Assembly: GCA_036172245.1 (NCBI GenBank)
Contig: JAYWIR010000007.1
Coordinates: 2,294,001 to 2,358,000 of the forward strand
From: Raillietiella orientalis
Taxonomy: Eukaryota
Direction: 5' to 3'
DNA length: 64,000 bases
A program made the position numbers and the translations under genes. Below the pieces are notes generated by a model. The model was given only the letters and a program-made list of their open reading frames with translations, had not been told where the DNA came from and did no database searches. Shown one piece after another: positions 1,647-44,900 of the stretch (position 1 is its first letter; each line of letters opens with the position of its first letter).

Positions 1647-2000
1647 TGTTGAGTGCTGTTGTTAAACAAAAGAACACTGAATTGATGTAATCACAAAGAT
1701 ACTCCAAAGCCTGGGAATCTTCCTAAAATAAAATCTGGTTCTATCCATGTGAAGCTGAATACAAGCCAGTTATTATGCAATTATGTAATTGTCACAGACA
1801 TATGAACTGTGGAATCAAGAATAAAAAGAAGATAGTAAAGCAACAGTTTTTTGGAAATTTCACAGCGTATTTAAAAATCTGCTTCGATATTTATCTAACA
1901 TCTGGTAATAAAAATGCCAGTGCATATGGATTCATTTCTCATGAAAACCATATTTTATGAGGACAATTTTTATGCTCAGTGTAATTAAGTTCCAGCTGGC

Positions 2001-2572
2001 TTATCCACTTGCCAGTTTAGCAAAAAATTTATCAACTTTATCTTCATCCTGTACTCCTACAAAACGATCTGCTACCTTACCATCTTTTATGGCAATCACT
2101 GATGGTACAGATGCAACCTAACTTGGCAAGTTTTAGTGATTTACCAATTTTCCTTGCTATCTAACCTCATAATTCATGGCCACATCAGGAAGTTTATCAA
2201 TATCTACTTTTGCAACTGAAATCTTTCCAGCATATCTCTCAGCAGCTTTCTCTATTCTGGGGTCCAACAACTTGCATGGATTACACCACCTTCACCATTA
2301 AAAGAAAAAATCATATGCTTTTGTGAGTATCCTGACTTTCAAAAATGTTTGAGTTCAGCATCACATTTGCAAACTTACGTGGCATGGAAATCTATGATCA
2401 CTGGCACATTACTTTTGATTACTCTTGCTTCAAAATCTTCTTCATCCTGTACATGAAAAGTATCTTGCAAAATGCGACTCATATGCAGGGTTTTTGAAAA
2501 CCGAGGTGCTATTAAATGCATCATGTAATTTCTGTTGCATAGACACCATTTCCATGGTGCAACAAAATTCAT
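2001..2572 (-). CDS. TXN2: Mitochondrial thioredoxin (about 144 aa)
   Basis: Exons 2572-2379, 2289-2166 and 2117-2001. Basic N-terminal presequence-like region, TFHVQDEEDF...PVIIDFHAT-WCNPCK active site, VAKVDID, YEVASVPSV, FVGVQDEDKV. Confidence 0.92.
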
Positions 2573-4758
2573 TTTGTATTCACAACTTTTAGTTTCACAA
2601 GGTCTGTTTGAATAACCTCAATATAATTCACTAGTTGGCCAAGAACCTTAATTTACTTTTGGTGGCAATTCAAGCACTGATGAAATATTGGCCTATTAAA
2701 TCATTCTGTAATGAAATCAGTGTTATACACACGGCACAAATTAATTTAAACTTTTCGAATTTAACTGATACAATAATGTTATTCAGAAAGGCTTTGTAAC
2801 CCAACATCCTTGAAATGGGCACCTACAACTACAGTTTTCAAATTCACTACATAACTATCCAAATTATACCCTACGATATTCGTAAACACAAGATTATTTA
2901 AAAATTACTGAAAAGATTGCACCATAAAGTTTCACTTCAATTTTTGTAAAGGAACAGAAACGGCAATAACCTGAAGAATAAGTTCATCAATTTAAAAGTC
3001 AGTAATTGAACAACTGAGCTAATTTTCCCCTAATCATTCCATTTGGTGACTTGCATCGATTTCACCAATGAGTACCCGCCGTTCAACTGCAATCTGTACA
3101 GACACCGTTCCGACATAAACTCTTGAAGTACCGTGCAAAGAATTTTCGAACTTTTCGTTATCGTAGGATTTTAATGAACCACGAAAATTAATTTTGGAAG
3201 TCAATTTTCATTTTTAGAACTGATCAATATCTTTATCTCACTTTGCAAATTTCATGTATACCTCTGAAGAAAAATTACATCCTATTTTTATTTTATTACA
3301 ACCATACACCATCAAAGTTGAAACAGCTAAGTATACGAATACATGAATTAATAATACCTTTTTTTTTTTAATGCTTTTCGAACCTTCAATCTTGATTTTT
3401 CTGTCGTATACTTTTAGAAATCTGTGCTCACGGAATTTCTTAGACCATCTTTGGAAAACAAACCATTTTCAATTGCTCTCCAAATGCTTTCAAAATTTGT
3501 CGTAAATGCCGTGAAAATTACTCGAAAATTTTCTTCCTTTCTACGTAATATTACCCGAATGAATTATTAGCATGTATTTCGCCTGAAGAATACATATCAT
3601 TACATCATTTGTAAGCTAGTATTGCAATCTAAAGATGAAGGAGGAAACAGATCTAGAGAGAAATCTAGAGAAAGAAAAAGTACTAAATAAAAAGCATAGG
3701 AAGTACATGGGAAGTAACCAATATCTCTAAAAAGACAACTGAAATGCATTGAAGAGACTTTGAAAGAAATTTTCACTTCTAATAAAATTAATTTATAGTT
3801 ATTGACCAACGTTTGATAAATAAAAAGGAAAGCAAGAAATATTTCCTCCTAATAAAATGCATTACGAAAAATTCGAGATTTCTGGTAAGTACTGACAATT
3901 GGAGGCGTTTAAATTTCACAGCACATCCTAGGTATAGTTAGTTTTCAGCTGCTAATTTTAACATCCCTCACCAAAAACTTAATCTAGTCGTGACTTAGTA
4001 GCATACTGCATTCATATGACATTTGACCAAATAATACTTGAATTACATCAATTCCTCTCTCGATCTCATTTTGCAAAGTTTCCCTAAAAGTGTCTTCTAT
4101 AACCATCGAAAATTGGAATTCCTTTAAATAGAGGAATAAACATGATATAAGAAAACAAATCTTCAAAAATGATTCAGTTTCGAAAGTGAATAGTGTATAG
4201 AAATGCTTCTCTGTGATCACAAATGTCGATGTGATCAAAGTCCGCAGAGATTATTTCCCAAACTGTAAGTACCATAAGCTAGTAGCAATGAGAAAAGCTT
4301 TCCAATTAAATTTTCAGACCAGCCAAAAAATTATAAAGGCAAAAATTCACTACTGTTGCTGTTGCTTTTTTCTATCATATGAATGTATGCTGATATATTG
4401 TGTTGCTTACTCTGAAAAAAGTAAAATAATTCCCTGAAGAATGCTTGGGATTTTATCTTGATGTGTCCCAAGTTCCATCAGACAGGTTAATTTAAAGTCA
4501 ATTACCATATTTTTCGGAAAAAAAATGAGAAATTGTGATTGGCTTTGATTCATGGATATGTATACGATCTATGAAATCAAATAAGAAGGCAGCATTTTAT
4601 AAAATGCTTTCTTAGACATTTATATTGCACATTTGACGCTGATATGGAACCGGATATGGTATTTATTCTTGTCTTCAGCAAATATAAGATAATCAATCTA
4701 TTTGTATATGGGATGCTAGGAATGTCTTCAAACCTGCGATGTTTCGAGTGTTCAAATA

Positions 4759-4880
4759 TTATGGATCCTTATGGATATTATTATGGATATTATGGATCCT
4801 TTTCCTTATGGATCGAAATGCCAAAATAAAGTACATGCCTGCATTATTCATGAGCATAAATCCATAAGAGCATTATGGAT
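4759..4880. repeat. Irregular cluster of TTATGGAT octamers
   Basis: Direct copies at 4759, 4769, 4781, 4790, 4806 and 4873, and one inverted copy at 4860. Confidence 0.85.
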
Positions 4881-5821
4881 ACCTGCATGAGATATTTGCA
4901 TATATTTGCTCCGCATGTTACTTATCCCACAAGGCATGCAGAAAAAGATTGATGTATGCTTGACTTTGTTCTTTGGAAGTTATCAGAAGAAATGATTACA
5001 TTTTCCGCACTTGTACGGGTAGTCAACGCTGGGAAGCTGAAGATGATACAAGGGCGTTTGTGTTTTCTTTATTAAATCTCCAAAATGCTACCTTATTAGA
5101 TGTTTATTTCACTATGGTACTGTGAAGGAAGAGGGATTTATGAAATATATGCATCTTGTAACAACTTGTTGCATCGTTTGTAGTGATAAACTTTTGTACA
5201 AGGATTAATTGCATTTGAAATAATATGAAATCACTGTTAGAGGACATGCATTGCATAAGAACTAGTAACAAACAATTTACTGAGAATACATATTAAATAA
5301 ATATATTTAAGTTGTTATTATACACTTGTTTCGTCGGTATAGTTTTTGTTCAAAAGACTAGTGCTATAAACCTCATTAGTAATCCAACGAAGAGATATTA
5401 GAGTGATATGGGATATATTCCATTCACGGTGTTGATACTAAAGTTTCCAGAAAGATCATTTTCGTCATTCGTTTATTATTCGATCACACGCTATAGCATT
5501 CATTAAACGATGTTGAACTATTTACATAAAATTATGGAATGTTTTGATTTTTTTATTTTTATTTTAGTAGAATTTCCTCTTTGAAATAATCTCAAAATAA
5601 GTTCTACATTGTTTTTTATTTTTCAAGGTAAATTGTATCTATGAAGAGAAGATGCAAATTATTATGAAGGCAGTTTAGAAGGAAGGAATACAAAGAATGA
5701 TTTTTCTGTAATGAATTAATTTTGTTTACTGCTTGCATTTGTTAAGTTTACTAATGTAATTTTGGCTTGCCGTATTTATTTCTCATTTTTAAAAAACTTC
5801 AAATATTTGTGAAGTGTATGA

Positions 5822-5868
5822 TGATGTGGATTCAGATATTTGAAAATCAAATACCTGAATCCACATCA
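5822..5868. repeat. 22-bp inverted repeat (1 mismatch, 3-nt loop)
   Basis: TGATGTGGATTCAGATATTTGA (5822-5843) and TCAAATACCTGAATCCACATCA (5847-5868). Confidence 0.9.
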
Positions 5869-7130
5869 GTCGTTGTGTTCGTTGAAACTTGTTCATTTTT
5901 AACAGCATGCATCAAAGAATTAGGACGCTAGAATTTTTCCATGAATGTTTGTGTTGGAAATTCAAGATTAAATGTATATGTTTATAGAGGTACAAACATT
6001 ACTTTCTTTTGTATCTGTATCTGTACCTTATGTGTTAGTAATAACTTTCCAAGCGGATTATTTTTTGTCCTTTTCTTTGTACTTTGTATTGTTTGCTAGA
6101 TATTTTGGAAGAGTGAGTTTCCAGTTTTTTCATTGCACATGTGATACTTGGTATTCCTGAATTTTTATTCTCATTGAGCAATGTAATGTTGGAAGTTGAA
6201 GTGGTGGTATTTCAAGTTATTAGGTAAAGCTAAAGATGTTTCGATTTTCTGTGTAAGTGACGCGCATCACAGCGCCATCTAATCATTAAAATGAGGTAAA
6301 TGTCACTAATTGTACTATTCTCTTTTGAAATAATAAGTATCGTAACTAAATTGTGTTTAAATTGCCTGTTTTCTTAAGAGGGTTTGTGATCCCCTGCATC
6401 TTCCAAAGTGTTGGAAACGGCAATGTGTTCTCTTCCAGCCTTGTGTTTACGTTTTCTTTGTAGTTAAAATAGAATGAAATTCATGATTTGTAATGATTTA
6501 TGGTTGGAATGAACGGGTAAATACTAGAGTCCAAGAGTGCTTGCGTGGCTGCATGTTATATTTGCGTTTATCAACAGTTGTATTTCTTAATGGCGTATAT
6601 CCCAAATTTTGGCAACGTGAATGCCTCGGCTATTGTTTTCATTTTGATTTGTTCTGTGTATTTTTCCATTCAGGAAACTTTTCCTTTGGTTAATGTCGAC
6701 GAAATAAGGCATTTCGAAATTCTTTCTCCCGGTAAGCAGTGTTCGAAAATAAAGGGCATTTATTATTATTGAATGCTCAATACGGTGCGTTTCGTAGCCA
6801 AAGGGTACCTCCTTCTAGGTGTACATACACGAATCTAGTTAATGCTGTTATGTTATAATTGGTTTTCGCGTAATTTCCTCCTTGAAGTTTTTCAGAGATT
6901 AGAACAACATCGTCAGCAGCAGGATTTCGAACTGTAGCCTGTTAATGAAAGTAATGTTTTAAAAGATAAAAATTCGTTCATTTATGGGTGATCTGATACA
7001 ATATTTTTGATTTCAAGTTGCATATTGTTTTGAACTTTGGCGTACTTTTATGCATTGAAGTAGCAGATGATAATTGGAAGTAGTGATAGTAAGTAATAAT
7101 AATAACCTGATGTTTATCTAGGTTTTCAAC

Positions 7131-7250
7131 ATGGACCCCCGTGTTTGGGATTATTTGCAATATAATTGGAGTACAGTGCAAAATACATGGCTACCTACAT
7201 GGATTTGGCCCCATCTTGTATGGGGGAGGAGGAGCATTTGGATAATCTAA
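7131..7250 (+). promoter_or_regulatory. Out-of-frame uORF (39 aa) overlapping the ATF4 start codon
   Basis: ATG 7131 (caacATGg, good context) to TAA 7248-7250. It overlaps ATF4 ATG 7187 in a different frame, the canonical ATF4 inhibitory uORF layout. Confidence 0.7.
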
Positions 7251-7799
7251 GCTTTGGGGATTTGGATGACTTTTGGACAGGTCTGTTATTAATTTTTAGA
7301 GGGTTCTTATTGTGCTTCAGGTGATAATGCATTTGCGATGGCTGTAGATACTGTGGATTTGTTAGCTTTGGATTCTACTCTATTTTCTACAAAGGAGATA
7401 CACTCTAATTCCTTAACTGATTACTTATTTCATGAAGATAACTTTGAGCATGCAGATGATTCTTATGGCGCTGATTCTTTACCAATCAGTATTCAAGATG
7501 AAATTTTGTTGTCCAGTGCTTCACTTCCTGAGGAGAACAAGGTGTCCAGTGCCCAATCTACCAAAAAAAGACAAGTGGCATTAGATCGGCATCTGCGTAA
7601 GAAAGAACAAAACCGAGCTGCAGCACTTAGGTATCGGCAGAAAAAACGAGCTGATCACCAAGACCAAAAATTGCAAATTGAGGAATTGGAAGCAAGAAAT
7701 AGCAAGCTAAGGAAGCAGCTGGATGACTTACATCAGCAATTCACTTTTCTGAAGTGCCTGTTCAGGGATACCCTCCATGCTCAGGGCGTTTTAGTATAG
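7187..7799 (+). CDS. ATF4: ATF4/cryptocephal-like bZIP transcription factor (about 190 aa)
   Basis: Exons 7187-7280 and 7321-7799 (40-nt intron, phase 1, in frame). Acidic N-terminus; bZIP RKKEQNRAAALRYRQKKRA...LEARNSKLRKQLDDL..QFTFLKCLFRD matches the ATF4/ATF5 basic region; overlapping uORF upstream. Confidence 0.88.
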
Positions 7800-7923
7800 A
7801 TTTTTTTAAACACACTGTTGTCTTTTGACATTTATGTATATCAGTGGAAGCTAGTAAAGCTGAGACCACTGTAATAGGATACATGAACACACTTATTTGT
7901 TTCTCAGATCCAAACACCTCAAC

Positions 7924-8412
7924 ATGGCTAGCCAGTCCCAAGGAGTTCAGCAGTTATTGGCAGCAGAAAAAAGAGCAGCAGAAAAAGTAGCTGAAGCACG
8001 CAAACGTAACCTACAGAAGTGATGGGTGGGGTAACAAATTTTTAAGCATAAGCTGTATAGGTAAAGCCAGACGATTGAAACAGGCTAAGGAAGAAGCACA
8101 AGCAGAGATCGAAAAGTATCGCCAAGAGAGGGAAATTCAGTTCAAAGAATATGAGTCTCAGGTTTGTGCTAATGTGCTCAGTTTGGATAAATGTGCGTGT
8201 TTAGCACATGGGATCCAGAGATGATATTGCATCAAAAATTGAGAGTGAAACTCAACAAAAAATTAGTAACATCAACAAAACTGTTCAGCAAAATAAGAAT
8301 GAGGTATGAGCACGACACATTATAAAAAGAGTTTTTGTTTTCTCAGGTAATCAGCTATTTAGTGGACCTTGTTTGTGATATTAAGCTAGAGCTGCATAAA
8401 AATGTTCGTTAG
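7924..8412 (+). CDS. ATP6V1G: V-type proton ATPase subunit G (about 115 aa)
   Basis: Exons 7924-8005, 8061-8161, 8205-8303 and 8347-8412 give [52 protein letters not shown]...[12 protein letters not shown]. Missing from the ORF track because every exon is short. Confidence 0.97.
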
Positions 8413-9474
8413 TTTAGATTCTTAGTGCTAGTCTAGTCAGATAAGCTGTAGATGTTGGAATCTTAATAAGCTGGGTTAACTGTTGGAAATACATCAGTTC
8501 GTATGCAATTTTTAAATATATAAATTGATTACTTCAAGAAAATTTCATGATTTTGACAAATCAGTTAGCGTAGGTTAGACGAAAATGGTATTCAGTCATA
8601 CCTATAGGTATCTGTGTATGTTTCACATGAAGTGTATGTATAGAATGCCCCTCAGCCTTCATCAAAATAAAGGTTTTCCAAAAATACTGCGACAGATTTG
8701 CACCATTATGTAATAAACTTGGTAATTGTATAGTCATTTGGTTGCGTTTTTCTTTTCTTCGCCCGAAATTCATGGAAGTATCATTAGTTTGATGCATTAC
8801 TAGCGATAGAAGAGTTGACACTGTATGATACGAAACACTGTGTGCGTTTCCCCTCGGTCGTGTCCATTTGCATGGCCGGACGGTGTTCGTATGCTCACTG
8901 ATATAATTCACGTGATATTACCGTGTATCTCATGAGGTAATTTTTGACGTGCTAATGGAAATTCCAGGTCAGCAATCAGTGACGTGAAAATCGAAAAATA
9001 GCCCTCTCTTTGATCAATACCGTATGAAGGTAAAGCACGTGAGTGTTGTCAATGTAGGTGTAGACAGACGACAACCTTTGGGTAATGCCTGAGGGGAGCA
9101 AGCTGTGGGGCTTTCCGAGCCGACAATTTAAGATCCAGTAATGGTAGCTAATTTGGTATCACGCGTTTGTGTGTTTTCTCATTTTGGTTCTGTGTGCATT
9201 CTCTCATCAGTGAGGATTTTCTCCGAAAGTTAGGGGTAAGTTTGAAAGTTGCAACTTTGAGAGCATCGGCGGCGCGGTCACTGTCGATGAATGCCCGTGC
9301 CGTCATAAGAGGAAGTTATCGTGCGTTTGGACGTGAGGACCACACATTCTGCACAGAAAAGAAAATGGGTTGCGTGGTTTCCGGCGCAAAGTGAGAAGGT
9401 CGTGGTCGCATCTGCCGAGCAAAGTGGAGAAGGTTTCCAAGAAGGAGTCCAGGGGAAGAGACGTGCCTGCTCAG

Positions 9475-36484: not shown

Positions 36485-37480
36485 TTATAAGCCGCAGACT
36501 ACTTTGTCCAAGGCGGATTCCAAAACTGTTCGCACTGTGGGAAGAATGGAGTTATCGTGTGGTAGCAGTGAGTTTGGATGAAAGACACCACACTGCATGA
36601 TTTCGACAGGAAGCATTGGCCTCTGTCCATTCCCAGTGGGCACTTTTTCCATAATGTTAAGGACATCTTCACCTTCGATGACTTGCCCGAAGGCAGTATA
36701 TTTCTTGTTCATCCAAATACATGGTTTCAAAAGAATGATGAACTGAGAAGTACCGGTGTTTCTTCCATGGTTAACCAAAGACACAATGCCTCTCTTTGAA
36801 TGAGATATATCAAAGCACTCATCTTCTAAGAATTTTCTCGTGTATCCTTCTCCACCATTTCCCTTTCCGTAGTAAATGTCCCCTCCTTGTATCCATTTAT
36901 TCTTCTCAATCCTATGGAAAAACGTGTTCTTGTAACTGAACTTTGTCTTTGCAGATGTCATTCTGTCCGCAACTCCTTTACAAAGACAATAAAAATTATA
37001 GCAAGTTTCAGGCACTACATCATTATATAGTTCAATCAGCAATCTCCCAATCGTCTTCTCGTTTACAGCAATATCCATGTAGACAAGAGGGTAGCCTTTG
37101 TTTTCCATCATTTCCCAATATCCAGTGCGTGCTCTGTTCTCAAACACGACATCTGGGAAGCAAGTGTTATAGAGGAGACGGCTAGACGCCCATTCGAGAA
37201 AACACTTGCCATCTCCCCAAAACGAATCGTTTAGAAATACGTACACTGGAACACATGTTTCCCAGTATTTCCGCACACACGATTTTTGAACGTTTTCCGA
37301 GTAACTGATCCATTCCAGCTCACCGAGAGCTCTGAATTTTGGCACATCAAATAGATTAGGATTCTCTTTATGCAAGACCAAGGCGCACTCCTTGACTTTC
37401 TCATAATATACGCTGAACACAAGACCAGTGATGCCGACTGTTACTTTCGAGTTTTTATCCAGGGGCAGAGACCGTTTCAT
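36485..37480 (-). CDS. PPIL6: Cyclophilin-like PPIL6 (probably catalytically inactive), single exon, about 331 aa
   Basis: Single ORF from ATG 37480. PPIL6-type N-terminal extension plus cyclophilin domain VYMDIAV..IGRLLIELY..VPETCYNF..LC..FHRI..WIQGGDI...SQFII..PCIWMNKKYTAFGQVIEG; W in WIQGG and Y replacing the usual His are PPIL6-like. Confidence 0.85.
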   Translation of the reverse strand: MKRSLPLDKNSKVTVGITGLVFSVYYEKVKECALVLHKENPNLFDVPKFRALGELEWISYSENVQKSCVRKYWETCVPVYVFLNDSFWGDGKCFLEWASSRLLYNTCFPDVVFENRARTGYWEMMENKGYPLVYMDIAVNEKTIGRLLIELYNDVVPETCYNFYCLCKGVADRMTSAKTKFSYKNTFFHRIEKNKWIQGGDIYYGKGNGGEGYTRKFLEDECFDISHSKRGIVSLVNHGRNTGTSQFIILLKPCIWMNKKYTAFGQVIEGEDVLNIMEKVPTGNGQRPMLPVEIMQCGVFHPNSLLPHDNSILPTVRTVLESALDKVVCGL

Positions 37481-39380
37481 CGTGAGAATTTGAAACCATG
37501 ACAATTATAATGAACGGATGACCGCAAGAATAAATGCATTCGATTTCATATTCTTTTTTGTTTTTTTTACATTTCAACATGCATTCCATTTGTGAGCAGT
37601 TACTTTTGCAAAAAACAAAAACACTGTTTACTTATGAAATAAGAATATGTGCTCCGATAAAAGGCAAAGCAGTGGCATATTGGTTCATGAGAATGCGTGA
37701 GAATGCAACAAATTTAGTAGGATTATGTAGCGCAGGGTACCCACTTGTCCAGTTCCAAGCTATCAACTAGAATTTGAAAAGATTCATATGTTAACCAGGA
37801 AGGTTTATGTATTTTTCAAGCCCGTTAAGAAGTCTATTAAGAAGAAGTCTTTCCAAAAAAACTTGCAACGTGACTCGGTTCCAGCGCTTTCAGTCTACAA
37901 AATTTCATTTGCTTTGACCTTTTTGCTCCCAAAGTAAAACCAACTTGTCCCACGATTTGCAACTTCAAGATCAAGGCCTACTGAGCTCCCCTCTGACTTC
38001 AAATAGGGCTGTCCGTTTTCCTCAATTTGATGTTTGCCAATTCCATTTGAAAACGAAGCGATTGGGGATTATGCATTGAAAGTCTGTTATCTGCCATTTA
38101 AGTACAACGTGGAATGGTGCGAACAGATCTGCAAAGGCACGCGTTATAGAATCTTGGCTTTCTATGGTACAGAATCCCTGGTAGTAGAAATGCTTTGAAA
38201 CGATAGATTCGCAAGCCGTTTATAGGGTTTTGGGTGATCACGTAGTGACCGTCGGCCCTCTTAGCTGCGCAGCCATCTTGGGTCCCCGGTCTTCTTAACA
38301 AAGAAGACTGCAGCCAGAAGAGCTTGCCTTACTAAAAGAACGAAACGTGCAAGAAGTCGCTGCTGGCGGAGTTGGGCTCCGTGGAGGCAAAAATTCACGC
38401 CTTTGCACCTCCTGGAAGCCACGCCCCACGCGGCGGTGCGATGCGAGCGGCGCCATTTGCTGCCGCGGGCGGCGGGGACCTCCACGAACCGAGCCCCCGG
38501 AGGGGGATAAAGGGGGGTCGCCCTGCAGCCGCCTCTCTTCGGCTTGCCAATAAAGCTCCAACAATGTCCGTTTCTTTAAACAATGATCCAAGAAGCAGCG
38601 GTCTGTTCCTGAAGACGGTGAATTGTTGCCAAGCGCGTCCGGAGGCGCAGTAGCCGAAGAGTTTGCTCGGAGGTAGCCGGTCGGGTGCGTTCCGTGCTTC
38701 CTGCTCTTGCAGTTCCCCCTGCGCACGTGTGAGGTTCATTCGAGAGGTTGTGGCAACCTCGGAAGTGTTCCCTCGACGTCCAGCCGGCGGCTCGGTCGTG
38801 ATCGGTGGAACGCTCCTTCCCCGGCATTTGTTTTACGCGCCGTTCGGCCACACGTGGCAGCAATTCCCTCCCCTCGTTGAGAGTGCGTCGCGTGATCGGC
38901 GAGCAAGGTGAGTCCAGCTGCGTACGTGCGGATGGCACGGCGTGCATTCCGGGTTAAGTGCTTTTAGGGTGGTGTTAATAGAAAAAGTCGGCATCTCATG
39001 CGTCGTGCTGGGCTGACAAAACGCACACCGTTTTGGCCGCTCTCCCGCATAGGCAGATGTGGCTTTCAAAACATGCTCCCGGCGCCCATTTGATTTTAGC
39101 GTAGCGTAACAGGTGCATCTCTGTTGTGAAAAGTATTCGGCCCACCCATCTCATACCGCAGCACAGTGGCTTCATCGGCAAAAATGTAACATCGATTGCA
39201 AGGTGTTTGGGCCTGCAAATCGTTGCCTTACTAAATTTTACATGAAGGAACTTGGCTTGCCATTGGTTTCAGTGTAATCATAATGCATGATGAAATGCCA
39301 GTTGGTTGGTGGCACTTGCTATGAATAAAGCAACTTTTATTCCATTTGCCTCCAAATGTTTTGTTTTCAGGTGGCGTGCT

Positions 39381-40395
39381 ATGGAATCATTATTAAGTGG
39401 AGTTTGTAGTGGTGTGTGTACCACGCTTCTGTTTCAGCCACTTGAATTGATAAAAACTAGAGTGCAGTTGCTTTCCAGGTTGTTAGTTTTATTTCCTTGT
39501 TATGTAGTGCATATTGCATGTTAAATTTGTTTTAGTCCCCAACCTCACCGTTTTCTTAGAGTGTCATACAATGTGGTTCACCAGGAAGGATTCACAGCCT
39601 TATGGAAAGGCACTGCTCCTGTATTTAATTTGTCATTAGAATTTTTTACTGTTTGTAGTCCCTACTGCGTTGTGTTCCAGGAATCAGTCTGTATTTCTTT
39701 TATATTGACCTGTTTAAGAATCATATAACAGGTCAGCAGTTAACTGCTAGTCAAGCAGCTTTTGTTGGTGCCCTATCCCGTACTCTTGCTTGCACCTGTG
39801 TTCTACCTGCCACAGTTCTTAAAACTCGGTTTGAGGTAGGAATCTTAGCTATGTAACCCCCAATTGAATATGACCTGCAGAGCAATGCCTTCCACTACAA
39901 GAGTGTGCTTGCAGGATTTCAGGAAATTTTGCAACTAGAAGGAATAAAGGGCTTGTTTCGAGGGTGGTCCTCAACTGTCCTGAGAGATGCCCCTTATTCT
40001 TCATTGTTTCTTGTGTTTTACTCCCAATTATGTTACTGGTCCAGCCTATATGCTAATCTAGAAATGCCCTTAATTTTGGCCAATGCAATAATAGCTGGGT
40101 CACTAGCCAGCCAATGCACCCAGCCTGTAGATGTCATCAAGACTCACGTTCAGGTTCATGCTTGCTCCAATTGGAAGGCTGTGCAAATCATTTACAAAGT
40201 TAGGAAACAAGTACACAAACACAAATCAAAATTTTGTAGGCAGCTGGAGTGCAAGGTTTCTGGAGAGGAACTGTACCTCGCTTGCTTCGACGCACAGGTA
40301 CTACTGCAATATCCTGGACCATTTATGAGGAGGTGAGTAGTGCTCTGAGAACATTTAGCATTCCTAATGTTGCCCAGTTGCATCGACGCCTATGA
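39381..40395 (+). CDS. SLC25A38: Mitochondrial glycine transporter SLC25A38-like (about 262 aa)
   Basis: Exons 39381-39478, 39536-39620, 39659-39835, 39881-40198, 40240-40332 and 40378-40395. TLLFQPLELIKTRVQ, SLLRCVPGISLYF, PATVLKTRFES, LRDAPYSSL, TQPVDVIKT, PRLLRRT...WTIYE. A possible extra micro-exon 39287-39300 would extend the N-terminus. Confidence 0.92.
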
Positions 40396-40542
40396 GGACA
40401 TCCTACCTGACCATCCCAGACCCAAAGAATACACAGAAAGTGCACTTGACAGTGTCACACCGGTCACCACTCAGTATTTGTCCTGGGCTCAGCAGGCAGT
40501 TTAGGAGAAGGGTAGGATAGAACTAGACACCATTGGAAAGAC

Positions 40543-41968
40543 TCAATCTAAACAATCATCAAGGCTCAGCATTTCAATCCCAAGACCAAAGTCACTTGAA
40601 TTAAAGCTTGGTGTTTCATCCAGCATATCTCTGAGCATGTCTATGGCAATGTACAGCCTTTCATCGCGTTCCTCGAGAAACTCCCACAGCAACATACTCT
40701 GTGAAATACCAATTGCACTAAAAGTAATAACACAAAGCAACTTACTGATAAAAATTCTACTTCATTGTCAGCATTATGCCTGCGGCGTCTTGGTGGTCCC
40801 ACATCAGCATGAGTGCCATCAGCATAGGCATGCAAATAAAAGCACTTATTGCCAAAGGGGCATTCTCCTCTTCCCTGCTCAAAGTACTTGCAAGCTTTAT
40901 TGCTATTAGAAATGAAATGCACGTAGCATTTACGTTTTTATCTTCAAACTAGCTTACCTAAGTGCTTTCAAGTACTCCTGGATCAGATGATCTTTTTCTT
41001 CTTTGCTCTCTACCCAGAATTTACTGGGCACAATAAAGTGTGATTCTACACGGCATTCTGGGCATGATCGGATAATGTGATTCTCAAACTGACGAGCCTG
41101 GCGCCATTTGCGAATACAGTTAAGACAGAAGATATGTGTGCAGTTGGGAAGAATACCAAAGCGGCGCTCACTCAGAGGTAGCTTTTCTTGCACAACATCC
41201 ATACAAATTCCACACACTTTGTCCCAAGAACGAGCCACTGCAAATGATAATTCCATATCTCTTTCATGAGCCTGAATGCATTCTTGATTGTGCTGCCGCC
41301 TTTGCTCCTGATCAACAGGATGCAGACAGGCATGGCCACAAAGCTCACACACATCACCATGTATATAAGTACATTCTTCTCCAAAGGGACACTCTCCCAT
41401 CATTGAAAATGGGCACAGCTGTCCCTCTATCAAAGGGTTCTCATCCTTAGGCTTGACCACCTGTGCATAGCTCTTGGGTGGACTCGAGGCTAAAGGAAAA
41501 CTGAGTATTAGGAAAACATTCAGCACTCTTACAGCAGCTTGGTGAAGGCACACTATGTTCAGCATCTATCCATGAGGAACTTGTATCTTGCTCATCTTGT
41601 TGAATTGATGTACCTGCAACAGTGTTTATTATTTGTGGAGATGAGATTTCAGAATTTCTTTGATTTTTATTAAAGACATTATTCCGATTAGGCTTCACAT
41701 GATCATAACTGGAGGAAGAAAAATCAGCCTTTTCAAGCCATTAGACTTTTACTTACATGCACTGACTGCCAAATATACAATGACCCATTAGATAATAACG
41801 GCATATTTGTGAAGGTTTGACTAATGTTGGGTCATGTGAATAGGCACAGCGTTCATTTTTGTTGCATGTTCCAAATTTGTAGTACCTTTGAAGATGATTT
41901 AAATTTACACAGAAATCAGATTTCGGACTTTACCTGCAAGGTACATTCTTTGTCCAACCCTCTGCCAT
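40543..41968 (-). CDS. MKRN1: Makorin RING finger E3 ubiquitin ligase (about 394 aa)
   Basis: Exons 41968-41934, 41885-41757, 41708-41533, 41489-40958, 40902-40746 and 40698-40543. Three N-terminal/central CCCH fingers, Cys-His motif, RING CGICMD...[21 protein letters not shown]...CPECR, and C-terminal [21 protein letters not shown]. Confidence 0.95.
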
Positions 41969-44900
41969 GGAGTTTACAGAACTAACTATATGACAATGCA
42001 CTACTGTTAATTGAGTGAATACACAAAGAACATGTTAAGTAAGACAACTGTTAATTTTATCTCTGATCCTAAGTTATAAAGGTGATTACTAACATATTTC
42101 ATATTTCATGACCAAAAAAGAATGCAATAGTATCTAATAAAACTCATGCATGACATTCAACAAATCATTTCTATATTCCAAGGGGCGATTCTCTTTAAAT
42201 TTTTGTGATTGAAAATGGTTAAGTTTATGCTATCACAACTGCTGCTCAGTACAGAAAAAAACAAATACAACAAATTAAAATACTGGGCTCATATGTAAAA
42301 TGCATCGGACATAGTTAATTTGCAAAGAATTTCCCATGATTCTATCCTGAGTTACGGACCCAATAACTGAAGGATGTGACAAATCTTCCATGAAAACACA
42401 CAGAGTGTTGTTTGCTGAAGATTTCTGACTGTCATACAATACAGAATTAACAATGCAACATGAATGTTGTTAATGGTATTGTTAATACAATGCTGTTTCT
42501 TTTTACACGAAAATACTAGTTTCAAAAAAGCATACTGGTATAAGATCTGAAGTGTCCTGAATGTCTAACATTTCAATTGAAATTAAGAAAATACAAAAGA
42601 CATTTGTTTGAAAGACAAAAAACATTTGTTTTCACGACAAATATTGAGAACTTATTTTACGACGTGAAGCATATGCCCTACATTACAGATGCACTATCTA
42701 TCACACAAGAAACAAAACAAAACTTCAATTATTCAACTTCAACAAATAACAGAGGTGCACACAAATGCACACAAGGTTAACAGCAAACAAAAAATTGAAA
42801 TTTCATTTCACATTAGGATTCACTAGCATTACCTAAAATTTCATCCGCAATTGATCTATTATTACCATACATGTTCAAATTCTAATAAAAATTTCTGATC
42901 GGGGATCTTTTATGGCATATCATCTATGGACACACTGTTAATTTACAGGAGGTCATTCAAATTTCGTTGATACATCTATGATGATTAAGCTTCTATAATT
43001 TTCTGCACAAGTATTTTTTTGATTTTTTCTGATACTGAATACTGACAGTCTGAATAATACGTGAATAGGCAGCCCAAGGAAATTGGGTAACTTTGAAGTG
43101 TTAGCAATAATTTCATCATACGAAACAAAAACATACAAAACTTTATTTGCCAGCGTAATTGTTTCAAAAAGCCTTTGAAGTTACCCGCGTAGGTCTACTA
43201 AAGAAACACTTTTGGCTAACCACCGTTTCAATAAAAAACTCTCCCCTTTACTGGCACAAATCAAGCACTAGTTCAAAAACAATATTCCAGATGTTGAAAA
43301 AAAATGGGTGAAACAGTTACGAAGTAAAACTACACCTAAAGCACAACATAATTCTCAAACATTCAGTATGCCATGCTACAACGTATCGTGGAGACATTAT
43401 TGGAAATCAAATGCATGTCCACCATATTTTCATGCATAACGATCCCCAAAAACACTTACGAGTAACAAGAAGGGGAGGGGGGGGGAGGGGGTGAAGAAAA
43501 AAAAAAAAAAAGGTTGCAGTTACATCAAATGAACATTTTTGGCAGAACAATGCATTCGAACAAATCATCAACCCACAACCTTCCAAAAAAAAAAGGAAAA
43601 AAAAAAAAGAAAAGTCAACCACCTGATATAGTGCAAACTGGCTCTACCCATTTTAAATGCTGCTTGTACCTTTATGAATACATGGCTGAGGTATAACAAA
43701 ATTCTGAACAAGGTTTCCTGCCCCGATCAGGAAAAAAAACACCACAATTCGTGCTTTTGCATTTGTGCGTGCGTACAATCGACGGAATCACAAATCGTCT
43801 CCTCTCCCGACTGCCGATGTTCACCAACGGTGTTAAATGTTTATGTCAGTTGATGCTACTCGGGGACGACTCGCGTGAATGAGCCTGGAAAAAAAAACGA
43901 CTGGGAGAGATAACTCCGACAGGAATACAGATTTTTCCCGCAGGCCAAATGCACACCTTCCCTGACTACACGCGTTTTCCATAATCAGCTTCCATCTTTC
44001 GTACGAAAGCAGCCTGACACCAATTAGTAGGGACTGCTCGTTGATTATCGTATGTATTGAGCTTGCAAATGCATGTCTTCCCCCCCCCCCCCCTGACCTG
44101 GAACCAAAATCTGAAGCTAGCAGTGACACAAAGGCCCAAGAATTACTTATGCGCAAATTTATGGTACACTGCTGTGTACACGAAGATGCCCGGAACGGGC
44201 AGCCAAACGCAAACATGAGCTGTACAGCGTTCTTTGGTTTCGAAGACCGCAGGAGGGGAAGAAAAAGGAAGTGGTAAATTCCATGCTGCTTAGACTTGGA
44301 AGATAATAAAGTTGGGTTATCGGTTTTCCTTTTTTTTCTTCTCCTCCTCGCTGAGATGTCAACCACACTGATTTACTCGACATGAAAGTACCTATGAAAG
44401 GATAAATAAATAATAAAAAAAAAAACATCACTTTGCTCTCGATCATATCGATTTAAGCCTTTAGTTTATATTTAGGCATTTTCTTTTACTAAGAACGTGT
44501 CCACACAACTTGCCCTTCCATATGATCACTGTATAGCATCTGTTTCTCTAAGAAAACATCATAAAAGTTGGTCCAAATGAGAACGAGAAGTTGTCAACGA
44601 TCAGATAAAATCGAATCCTCAGAAACTGACTTTTGTTATTGCAACTGATACTGAATAAAATTCAACTTTTACTGCATACCGTCACATTTGAACAGCTTCA
44701 AATACACCTGTTATTTTGGGGCCAGTGTGCTCCTAAATAAGATTCCCTAACGGCAAGGAAATCCTTGATAAGTTCTAAAGACATGTTGCAGGAGTTAATA
44801 AAGGTTAATAAAGACATGGGTTCAGAACATGGATGATAACATAACCATTTTATTATAGATAAAGTTGGAACAGTTTATGAATCCCAGAGACTTGCTACTA

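Follow-up and report, generated by a model that had tools for sequence, protein, structure and literature searches.

How does the second of two closely spaced genes come by a message of its own? The question is raised by a locus in a 64,000-nt stretch of a 210-Mb genome in 491 contigs (G000:C7:2294001-2358000, hereafter the window), where the stop codon of an ATF4-like gene ends at 7799 and the ATG of the gene for V-ATPase subunit G lies on the same strand at 7924, leaving 124 nt between them. The gap contains no AATAAA; it does contain AGTAAA at 7853-7858 and a splice acceptor that ends at 7907, 16 nt 5′ of the V-ATPase G ATG. Further upstream, the TCT-like motif TCTTTCTCCC at 6721-6730 precedes a G/GTAAGC donor at 6732, and another acceptor lies at 7121. 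A first-pass annotation, whose positions and spacing for all of these elements are confirmed on the sequence, read the pair as one transcription unit and offered several ways in which it might be resolved: nesting, a shared first exon, a dicistronic mRNA and, named last, trans-splicing. RNA and genome support the last of these and do not support the other three.

The gene pair and its surroundings

Two RNA runs, X1 and X2, which contain a small share of the stretch, were aligned to window positions 1700-9200 and yielded seven contigs, which must come from relatives because they are 90-99% alike to the window; X2 is a metatranscriptome run, and the RNA status of X1 is a guess. Together with gene models and domain searches, these contigs define the following features of the upstream gene.

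6674..6731, + strand: probable ATF4 5′ exon of 58 nt, predicted from sequence by an acceptor at 6673 and the donor at 6732
6693..6707, + strand: candidate uORF1 of 4 codons plus stop, by analogy with Drosophila ATF4 (PMC4433282)
6721..6737, + strand: TCT-like motif with the GTAAGC donor at 6732, a putative start site by motif
6896..6950, + strand: possible further 5′ exon, suggested by an acceptor at 6895 and a weak donor at 6951
7131..7250, + strand: uORF2 of 39 codons, which runs across the ATF4 start in another frame
7187..7280, + strand: ATF4-like coding exon 1 (gene model; presumed start codon)
7281..7320, + strand: 40-nt GT-AG intron of ATF4, its 40 letters skipped by X1 record 2, whose short side spans only 18 letters
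7321..7799, + strand: ATF4-like coding exon 2 with the bZIP domain (gene model, domain search, RNA contigs)

The interval and the downstream gene follow directly.

7800..7907, + strand: 108 nt comprising the ATF4 3′ UTR and an intercistronic stretch or outron, with AGTAAA and no CpG
7893..7907, + strand: trans-splice acceptor of V-ATPase G, a leader being joined after the AG at 7906-7907 (RNA contig)
7908..7931, + strand: predicted frame of 8 codons opened by the leader’s terminal AUG, out of frame and overlapping the V-ATPase G ATG
7924..8005, + strand: V-ATPase G exon 1, coding part (domain search, gene model, RNA)
8061..8161, + strand: V-ATPase G exon 2 (domain search, gene model, RNA)
8205..8303, + strand: V-ATPase G exon 3 (domain search, gene model, RNA)
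8347..8412, + strand: V-ATPase G exon 4 to the stop (gene model, RNA)

The gene names given at first pass are upheld by the domain searches and by the introns that RNA skips. The upstream product, 190 aa in all, matches bZIP families, with human ATF-4 as its only PDB match (E 2e-8) and one protein matched in a homolog search; an ATF4-type bZIP together with an out-of-frame uORF overlapping the start is the combination that marks the ATF4/ATF5 family. The downstream product is 115 aa long and carries PF03179 on three of its four exons. Genome-wide, PF03179 gives two matches, both at this gene, which is the only locus found. The accessible text on Drosophila ATF4 (crc) describes paired uORFs in its mRNA (PMC4433282), and the bZIP gene here likewise combines an out-of-frame uORF across its start with a short upstream candidate; it differs in that uORF1 here hangs on the predicted exon 6674-6731.

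The 5′ end of ATF4 can be drawn in more than one way. The TCT-like motif TCTTTCTCCC could also be the last part of an exon of 58 nt at 6674-6731, which would carry a short uORF. A CpG-bearing stretch at 6258-6305 holds the motif GCGCCATCT, which we take to be YY1-like, and a donor at 6296; it is a possible promoter and first exon for ATF4, further upstream than the motif at 6721. Pyrimidine-rich acceptors as good as that at 7907 have a frequency of 0.14 per 124 nt, and TCT-type motifs one of 1.4 per 600 nt; neither motif alone exceeds chance. A TCT motif directly 5′ of G/GTAAG occurs once in the window, at 6721-6737, by a post hoc test.

The window at large (1-64000) alternates between AT-rich gene clusters with introns of 40-55 nt and stretches of 50-59% GC with no obvious genes. 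On the minus strand, a thioredoxin gene (2100-2560; PF00085), whose 89-nt intron is confirmed in both RNA runs, converges on a gene at 1-1646 that is presumably ATAD5-like. The active-site motif of this thioredoxin is WCNPC, the usual one being WCGPC. At 39370-41990 a mitochondrial carrier gene (+; PF00153) runs toward a CCCH/RING makorin-like gene (-), the two converging ends lying near one another, and a CpG-rich stretch separates the carrier from a divergent cyclophilin gene (36485-37504, -).

A leader at the V-ATPase G acceptor

RNA evidence at the acceptor comes from a 467-nt contig (X2 record 7) that aligns to 7907-8492, skips all three V-ATPase G introns and bears 25 loose letters in front of 7907. 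The G at 7907 is at once the G of the acceptor AG and the last letter of the leader, such that the join reads as leader...GATG followed by 7908. The acceptor is beyond doubt because RNA shows its use, not because of motif statistics. A single contig documents this junction, the relative it comes from differing by a few percent, and the contigs report no strand, start or level.

With as many as 3 mismatches allowed, the leader still finds no match in the window. Elsewhere in the genome, at up to 2 mismatches, there are nine matches on nine other contigs, four of them exact, and the reversed control gives none; a DNA search with the leader gives 15 matches, none on the window’s contig C7. The part in common is 45 nt long (L005:787-831) and ends in ATG, and on L005, a GC-rich contig of 971 nt, it is directly followed by a GTAAGC donor. 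We thus have a leader with no cis source upstream (in one relative’s contig), a join at an AG, and a remote copy of the leader with a GT donor, and we hold with high confidence that V-ATPase G is spliced-leader (SL) trans-spliced at 7907. No papers were found to match terms derived from the leader sequence. Two metagenome matches to a 20-letter part of the leader were rejected as chance, their flanks being unrelated.

Where might the leader be made? We read L005 and its fragments as a repeated, badly assembled candidate SL RNA gene. A 772-nt contig (L013) matches L005 over 771 nt at 92% and ends immediately 5′ of the donor; another (L011) carries the damaged end of the leader with an identical GTAAGC donor; and L008, L011, L014 and L021 contain pieces of the L005 sequence 3′ of the donor. 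Further searches for a full SL RNA gene gave two matches and then four; L049 was dropped as a candidate, having only 23 nt in common. Rfam recognizes no SL family in L005 or L008 (two sub-threshold matches in L001 were set aside), and the 140 nt after the L005 donor hold no canonical Sm site. Hairpins are predicted for the candidate RNA, which folds no better than its shuffles (z -1.1 and -1.0), and L014 shows one compensated pair, read by eye. Beyond those 140 nt, L011 and L021 have GAGAGAATTTCTTA in common, after which a hairpin comes next in L011, and they likewise have AATTTCTTA in common at a distance of some 190 nt or more from the donor region; U1 has AATTTTTAG. If GAGAGAATTTCTTA were the Sm site, which is a lead only, the candidate RNA would far exceed the 108-158 nt given for copepod SL RNAs in the accessible text of PMC4664967. 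If this downstream similarity marks its end, the RNA may be about 250-290 nt long.

U1 itself has 42 matches in the genome, 37 above the cut-off, and the U1 snRNA sequences at L034-L039 fall into two types that differ in their upstream regions. By eye, no upstream element is common to L005/L013 and the U1 genes in six of the 42 U1 matches.

A test of trans-splicing from DNA comes from loci where the leader is present but is not followed by SL RNA sequence. Three of these ten loci were traced, and proved to be intronless copies of a PKD-like gene on C9 (L002; parent L027), a Brix-domain gene on C1 (L003) and a longin/synaptobrevin gene on C25 (L009; parent L041), the last of which we take to be YKT6; the untraced loci are L004, L006, L007, L010, L018, L022 and L023. 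In all three retrocopies the leader replaces the parent’s sequence at an AG position (for L009 by eye across a one-base insertion). The parents bear introns and lie on other contigs, and the leader is absent from all seven parent loci examined. Such retrocopies are evidence of trans-splicing from DNA alone, read as relics of leader-bearing messages, and by this proxy, together with the V-ATPase G RNA, the leader is found on several unrelated messages: PKD-like, Brix-domain, longin-SNARE and V-ATPase G. An extra G precedes the leader in both full-length retrocopies, at a position where L005 has T, a hint that it may be the trace of a hypermethylated cap.

Among the untraced loci, L022:1490-1540 (G000:C59) is a leader copy in AT-rich DNA, with a pyrimidine-rich AG before it and without the terminal ATG or donor, and L023:1501-1770 (G000:C2) is a decayed ubiquitin copy (PF00240) under a decayed leader.

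The terminal AUG of the leader may have different fates on different messages. It is in frame with the gene in all three retrocopy parents. On the PKD-like copy (L002:1481-1916, G000:C20) the leader joins at the acceptor directly 5′ of a ubiquitin-like domain. The leader AUG may be the start codon of this gene, because the parent has no in-frame ATG between the previous stop and that acceptor; alternatively, an internal exon may take the leader. On V-ATPase G the AUG instead opens the short overlapping frame listed above. By the Kozak rule, which we assume to apply here, the leader AUG stands in a weak context and the true ATG in a strong one, and leaky scanning past the former to the latter therefore looks like the plain reading.

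Probable co-transcription of the pair

Given SL splicing, it is quite likely that ATF4 and V-ATPase G are co-transcribed, and we judge the pair to be, probably, a two-gene operon resolved by SL trans-splicing. The genes share a strand, with 124 nt from stop to ATG and 108 nt from stop to acceptor, and the downstream gene is trans-spliced. For co-transcription speaks also that the gap lacks AATAAA, a signal likewise missing from upstream cistrons of Ciona and Oikopleura operons (PMC1488885). Transcription would begin upstream of ATF4, where CpG is at a normal level, and read through; the ATF4 mRNA would end inside the 108-nt gap, via the weak AGTAAA or via cleavage coupled to trans-splicing; and the downstream RNA would receive a cap and the 45-nt exon from the SL RNA, so that each gene ends up with a message of its own. 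Operon genes and stand-alone genes alike appear to draw on a single leader, as in Ciona, Oikopleura and flatworms. The first-pass claim of one transcription unit is likely to be right, although none of the seven contigs bridges the two genes.

The leader by itself does not prove an operon, because it also heads genes that appear to stand alone: within the 1.5 kb examined, neither the PKD-like (L027) nor the YKT6-like (L041) parent has a gene close upstream. For the Brix gene, by contrast, a same-strand frame ends 360 nt 5′ of the acceptor. The pair could then be mere neighbors, with V-ATPase G trans-spliced onto a short outron transcribed from its own promoter in the last ATF4 exon or the gap. 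SL splicing in parasitic flatworms affects many monocistronic genes (PMC12582326, accessible text), and no contig bridges the two genes, cover ending at 7814 and resuming at 7907 in what are shallow contigs only. (Cover begins at 7260, and the gaps at 6700-7260 and 7815-7906 carry no evidential weight.) Even so, we consider this reading unlikely. The ATF4 3′ UTR, with RNA cover reaching at least 7814, would also have to fit into the 108 nt, and there is no CpG-normal patch before 7907 of the kind seen before three other leader-taking acceptors and in the ATF4 5′ region. Over the 400 nt preceding 7907 the CpG observed/expected ratio is 0.35 (6 observed, 17 expected), but most of these 400 nt are ATF4 coding sequence, which is depleted for reasons of its own; in the gap by itself there is no CpG where 2.8 are expected (P 0.06). 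The same ratio is 0.95-1.02 before the three other acceptors, 0.77-1.07 at the ATF4 5′ end and about 1 over 6200-7121. In the window, gene bodies give 0.22-0.44 and several 5′ regions about 1, with one at 0.65. The depletion before 7907 is suggestive of a methylated gene body rather than a promoter. Folding of the gap is unremarkable (z -0.6).

Could a cis-spliced message account for the acceptor instead? The first-pass annotation had entertained a 5′ exon ending at 6731 and spliced to 7908, with ATF4 nested in between or the first exon common to both genes. The strong donor at 6732 behind a TCT-like motif, a combination unique in the window, is what recommends it; moreover, flatworm acceptors often serve both cis- and trans-splicing (PMC12582326, accessible text), and contigs drop rare forms, which leaves room for a minor isoform. 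As the main route it is very improbable: the sole contig across 7908 joins a leader absent from the window, and the four joints in the aligned contigs include no cis joint to 7908.

That the main product is a mature dicistronic mRNA, with or without a mini-intron at 7854-7907 and with V-ATPase G translated by re-initiation, is scarcely credible. Only the short gap and the absent AATAAA speak for it, whereas the leader opens the V-ATPase G contig and none of the contigs contains both frames; the mini-intron proposed at first pass, with its weak donor at 7854, is without support. (The X1 contig of V-ATPase G starts at 7998, beyond the acceptor junction.) Least probable of all is that the contig acquired its leader through chimeric assembly and that the genomic copies are an unrelated repeat: chimeric ends do occur in X2, where record 6 covers ATF4 (window 7580-7814) and then runs into a 20-letter tail, probably chimeric, that matches neither window nor genome, and part of the leader turns up by chance in two metagenome contigs, but the join falls exactly between the leader’s donor and the AG acceptor, and three DNA retrocopies show a like join with no RNA assembly involved.

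An operon resolved by trans-splicing need not imply joint regulation of its products. ATF4 output is probably set by uORFs at translation, and the two proteins therefore need not be coupled by a common transcript. No evidence was found for the proposal, made at first pass, that the pair couples ATF4 and the V-ATPase in the integrated stress response and TORC1 signaling. That the two messages, each with a predicted overlapping uORF, jointly answer eIF2-alpha phosphorylation is decidedly improbable. The pairing of ATF4 with V-ATPase G itself looks incidental, and no paper was found that joins ATF4, uORF, V-ATPase and operon.

Relation to known leader systems

Mitochondrial sequences point to the lineage of the genome: we regard an arthropod as very probable and, within that, a pentastomid or branchiuran, hence a parasitic crustacean, as likely. 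For the intact COX1 (L029), three pentastomids are the top three among the 120 matches listed, at 72-73%; it groups with them at 100/100 in a 17-row tree of those sequences and 13 insects, in which the query is flagged as a long branch, and of 32 diagnostic sites, 21 place it on their side. In most arthropods trnK lies between cox2 and trnD. In the mitochondrial contig here cox2 is directly followed by trnD, as in Armillifer moniliformis and Argulus japonicus, and trnY-trnW-cox1 departs from the order tabulated for those two species in the accessible parts of the papers (PMC12856591, PMC10999652). A trnL was read by eye between cox1 and cox2, where ARAGORN made no call, and leucine tRNAs are labelled otherwise in the accessible text of PMC5266366. 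On L029 (G000:C282:1-3086) a tRNA-like stretch occurs twice after cox1, about 520 nt apart, before cox2. COX1 has 54 matches in the genome, mostly fragments. A 255-aa carrier from the window has Limulus and Strigamia as its first named matches, at 53-55%.

Several animal groups offer points of comparison, drawn here from the accessible text of the papers cited. The operons of Oikopleura dioica and Ciona intestinalis are similar, with one leader for operons and stand-alone genes, very short spacing and upstream cistrons without AATAAA (PMC1488885, PMC7986045); the present case differs in being in an arthropod, with 108 nt from stop to acceptor and a precursor that we infer. SL2 operons of Caenorhabditis elegans likewise have spacing of about 100 nt and a trans-splice acceptor before the downstream gene (PMC1488885, PMC7986045), whereas the leader here is not specialized, heading apparently stand-alone genes too. 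In flatworms, operon candidates are delimited by a spacing of at most 300 nt, and the leader ends in AUG before a GU donor, an AUG that can be in frame with the gene (PMC9851317, PMC12582326), as it is in the three retrocopy parents here. The differences are the lineage, the absence of any match to an Rfam SL family and a candidate RNA that may reach about 250-290 nt. We infer that the AUG-ending leader is convergent with that of flatworms.

Among arthropods, leaders are known from copepods and from the amphipod Parhyale (PMC4664967, PMC5111886). Calanoid copepods have a 46-nt SL exon, extra hairpins within the exon and non-standard Sm sites (PMC4664967), and the four leaders given for Parhyale in the accessible text of PMC5111886 are without a terminal AUG and, by eye, unlike the leader here. 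As of 2021, operons had not been reported in copepods or amphipods, according to the accessible text of PMC7986045. For pentastomids, Argulus and Branchiura, no report of SL splicing was found in the literature searched, which covered few subscription papers and no supplements. Douris et al. is said to be the paper on leaders in amphipods and copepods. The mechanism is thus of a kind already known; the leader, the candidate SL gene and the use of such splicing by this lineage appear undescribed in the papers searched.

On balance, we lean toward the view that tongue worms, or fish lice as their relatives, have an SL system of their own that resolves many operons in an arthropod. Such a system might combine an AUG-ending leader with an unusually long SL RNA and a non-standard Sm site, and may have evolved convergently with that of flatworms. 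If this is true, the leader AUG would act as the start codon on some messages and as an overlapping uORF on V-ATPase G. A further arthropod leader with operons would bear on how often SL splicing and operons arise and on which drives which, and an AUG-ending leader outside the flatworms, in another group of animal parasites, would amount to a clear case of convergence. There is also a practical use, in that the leader would serve as a primer for pulling parasite mRNA from host RNA.
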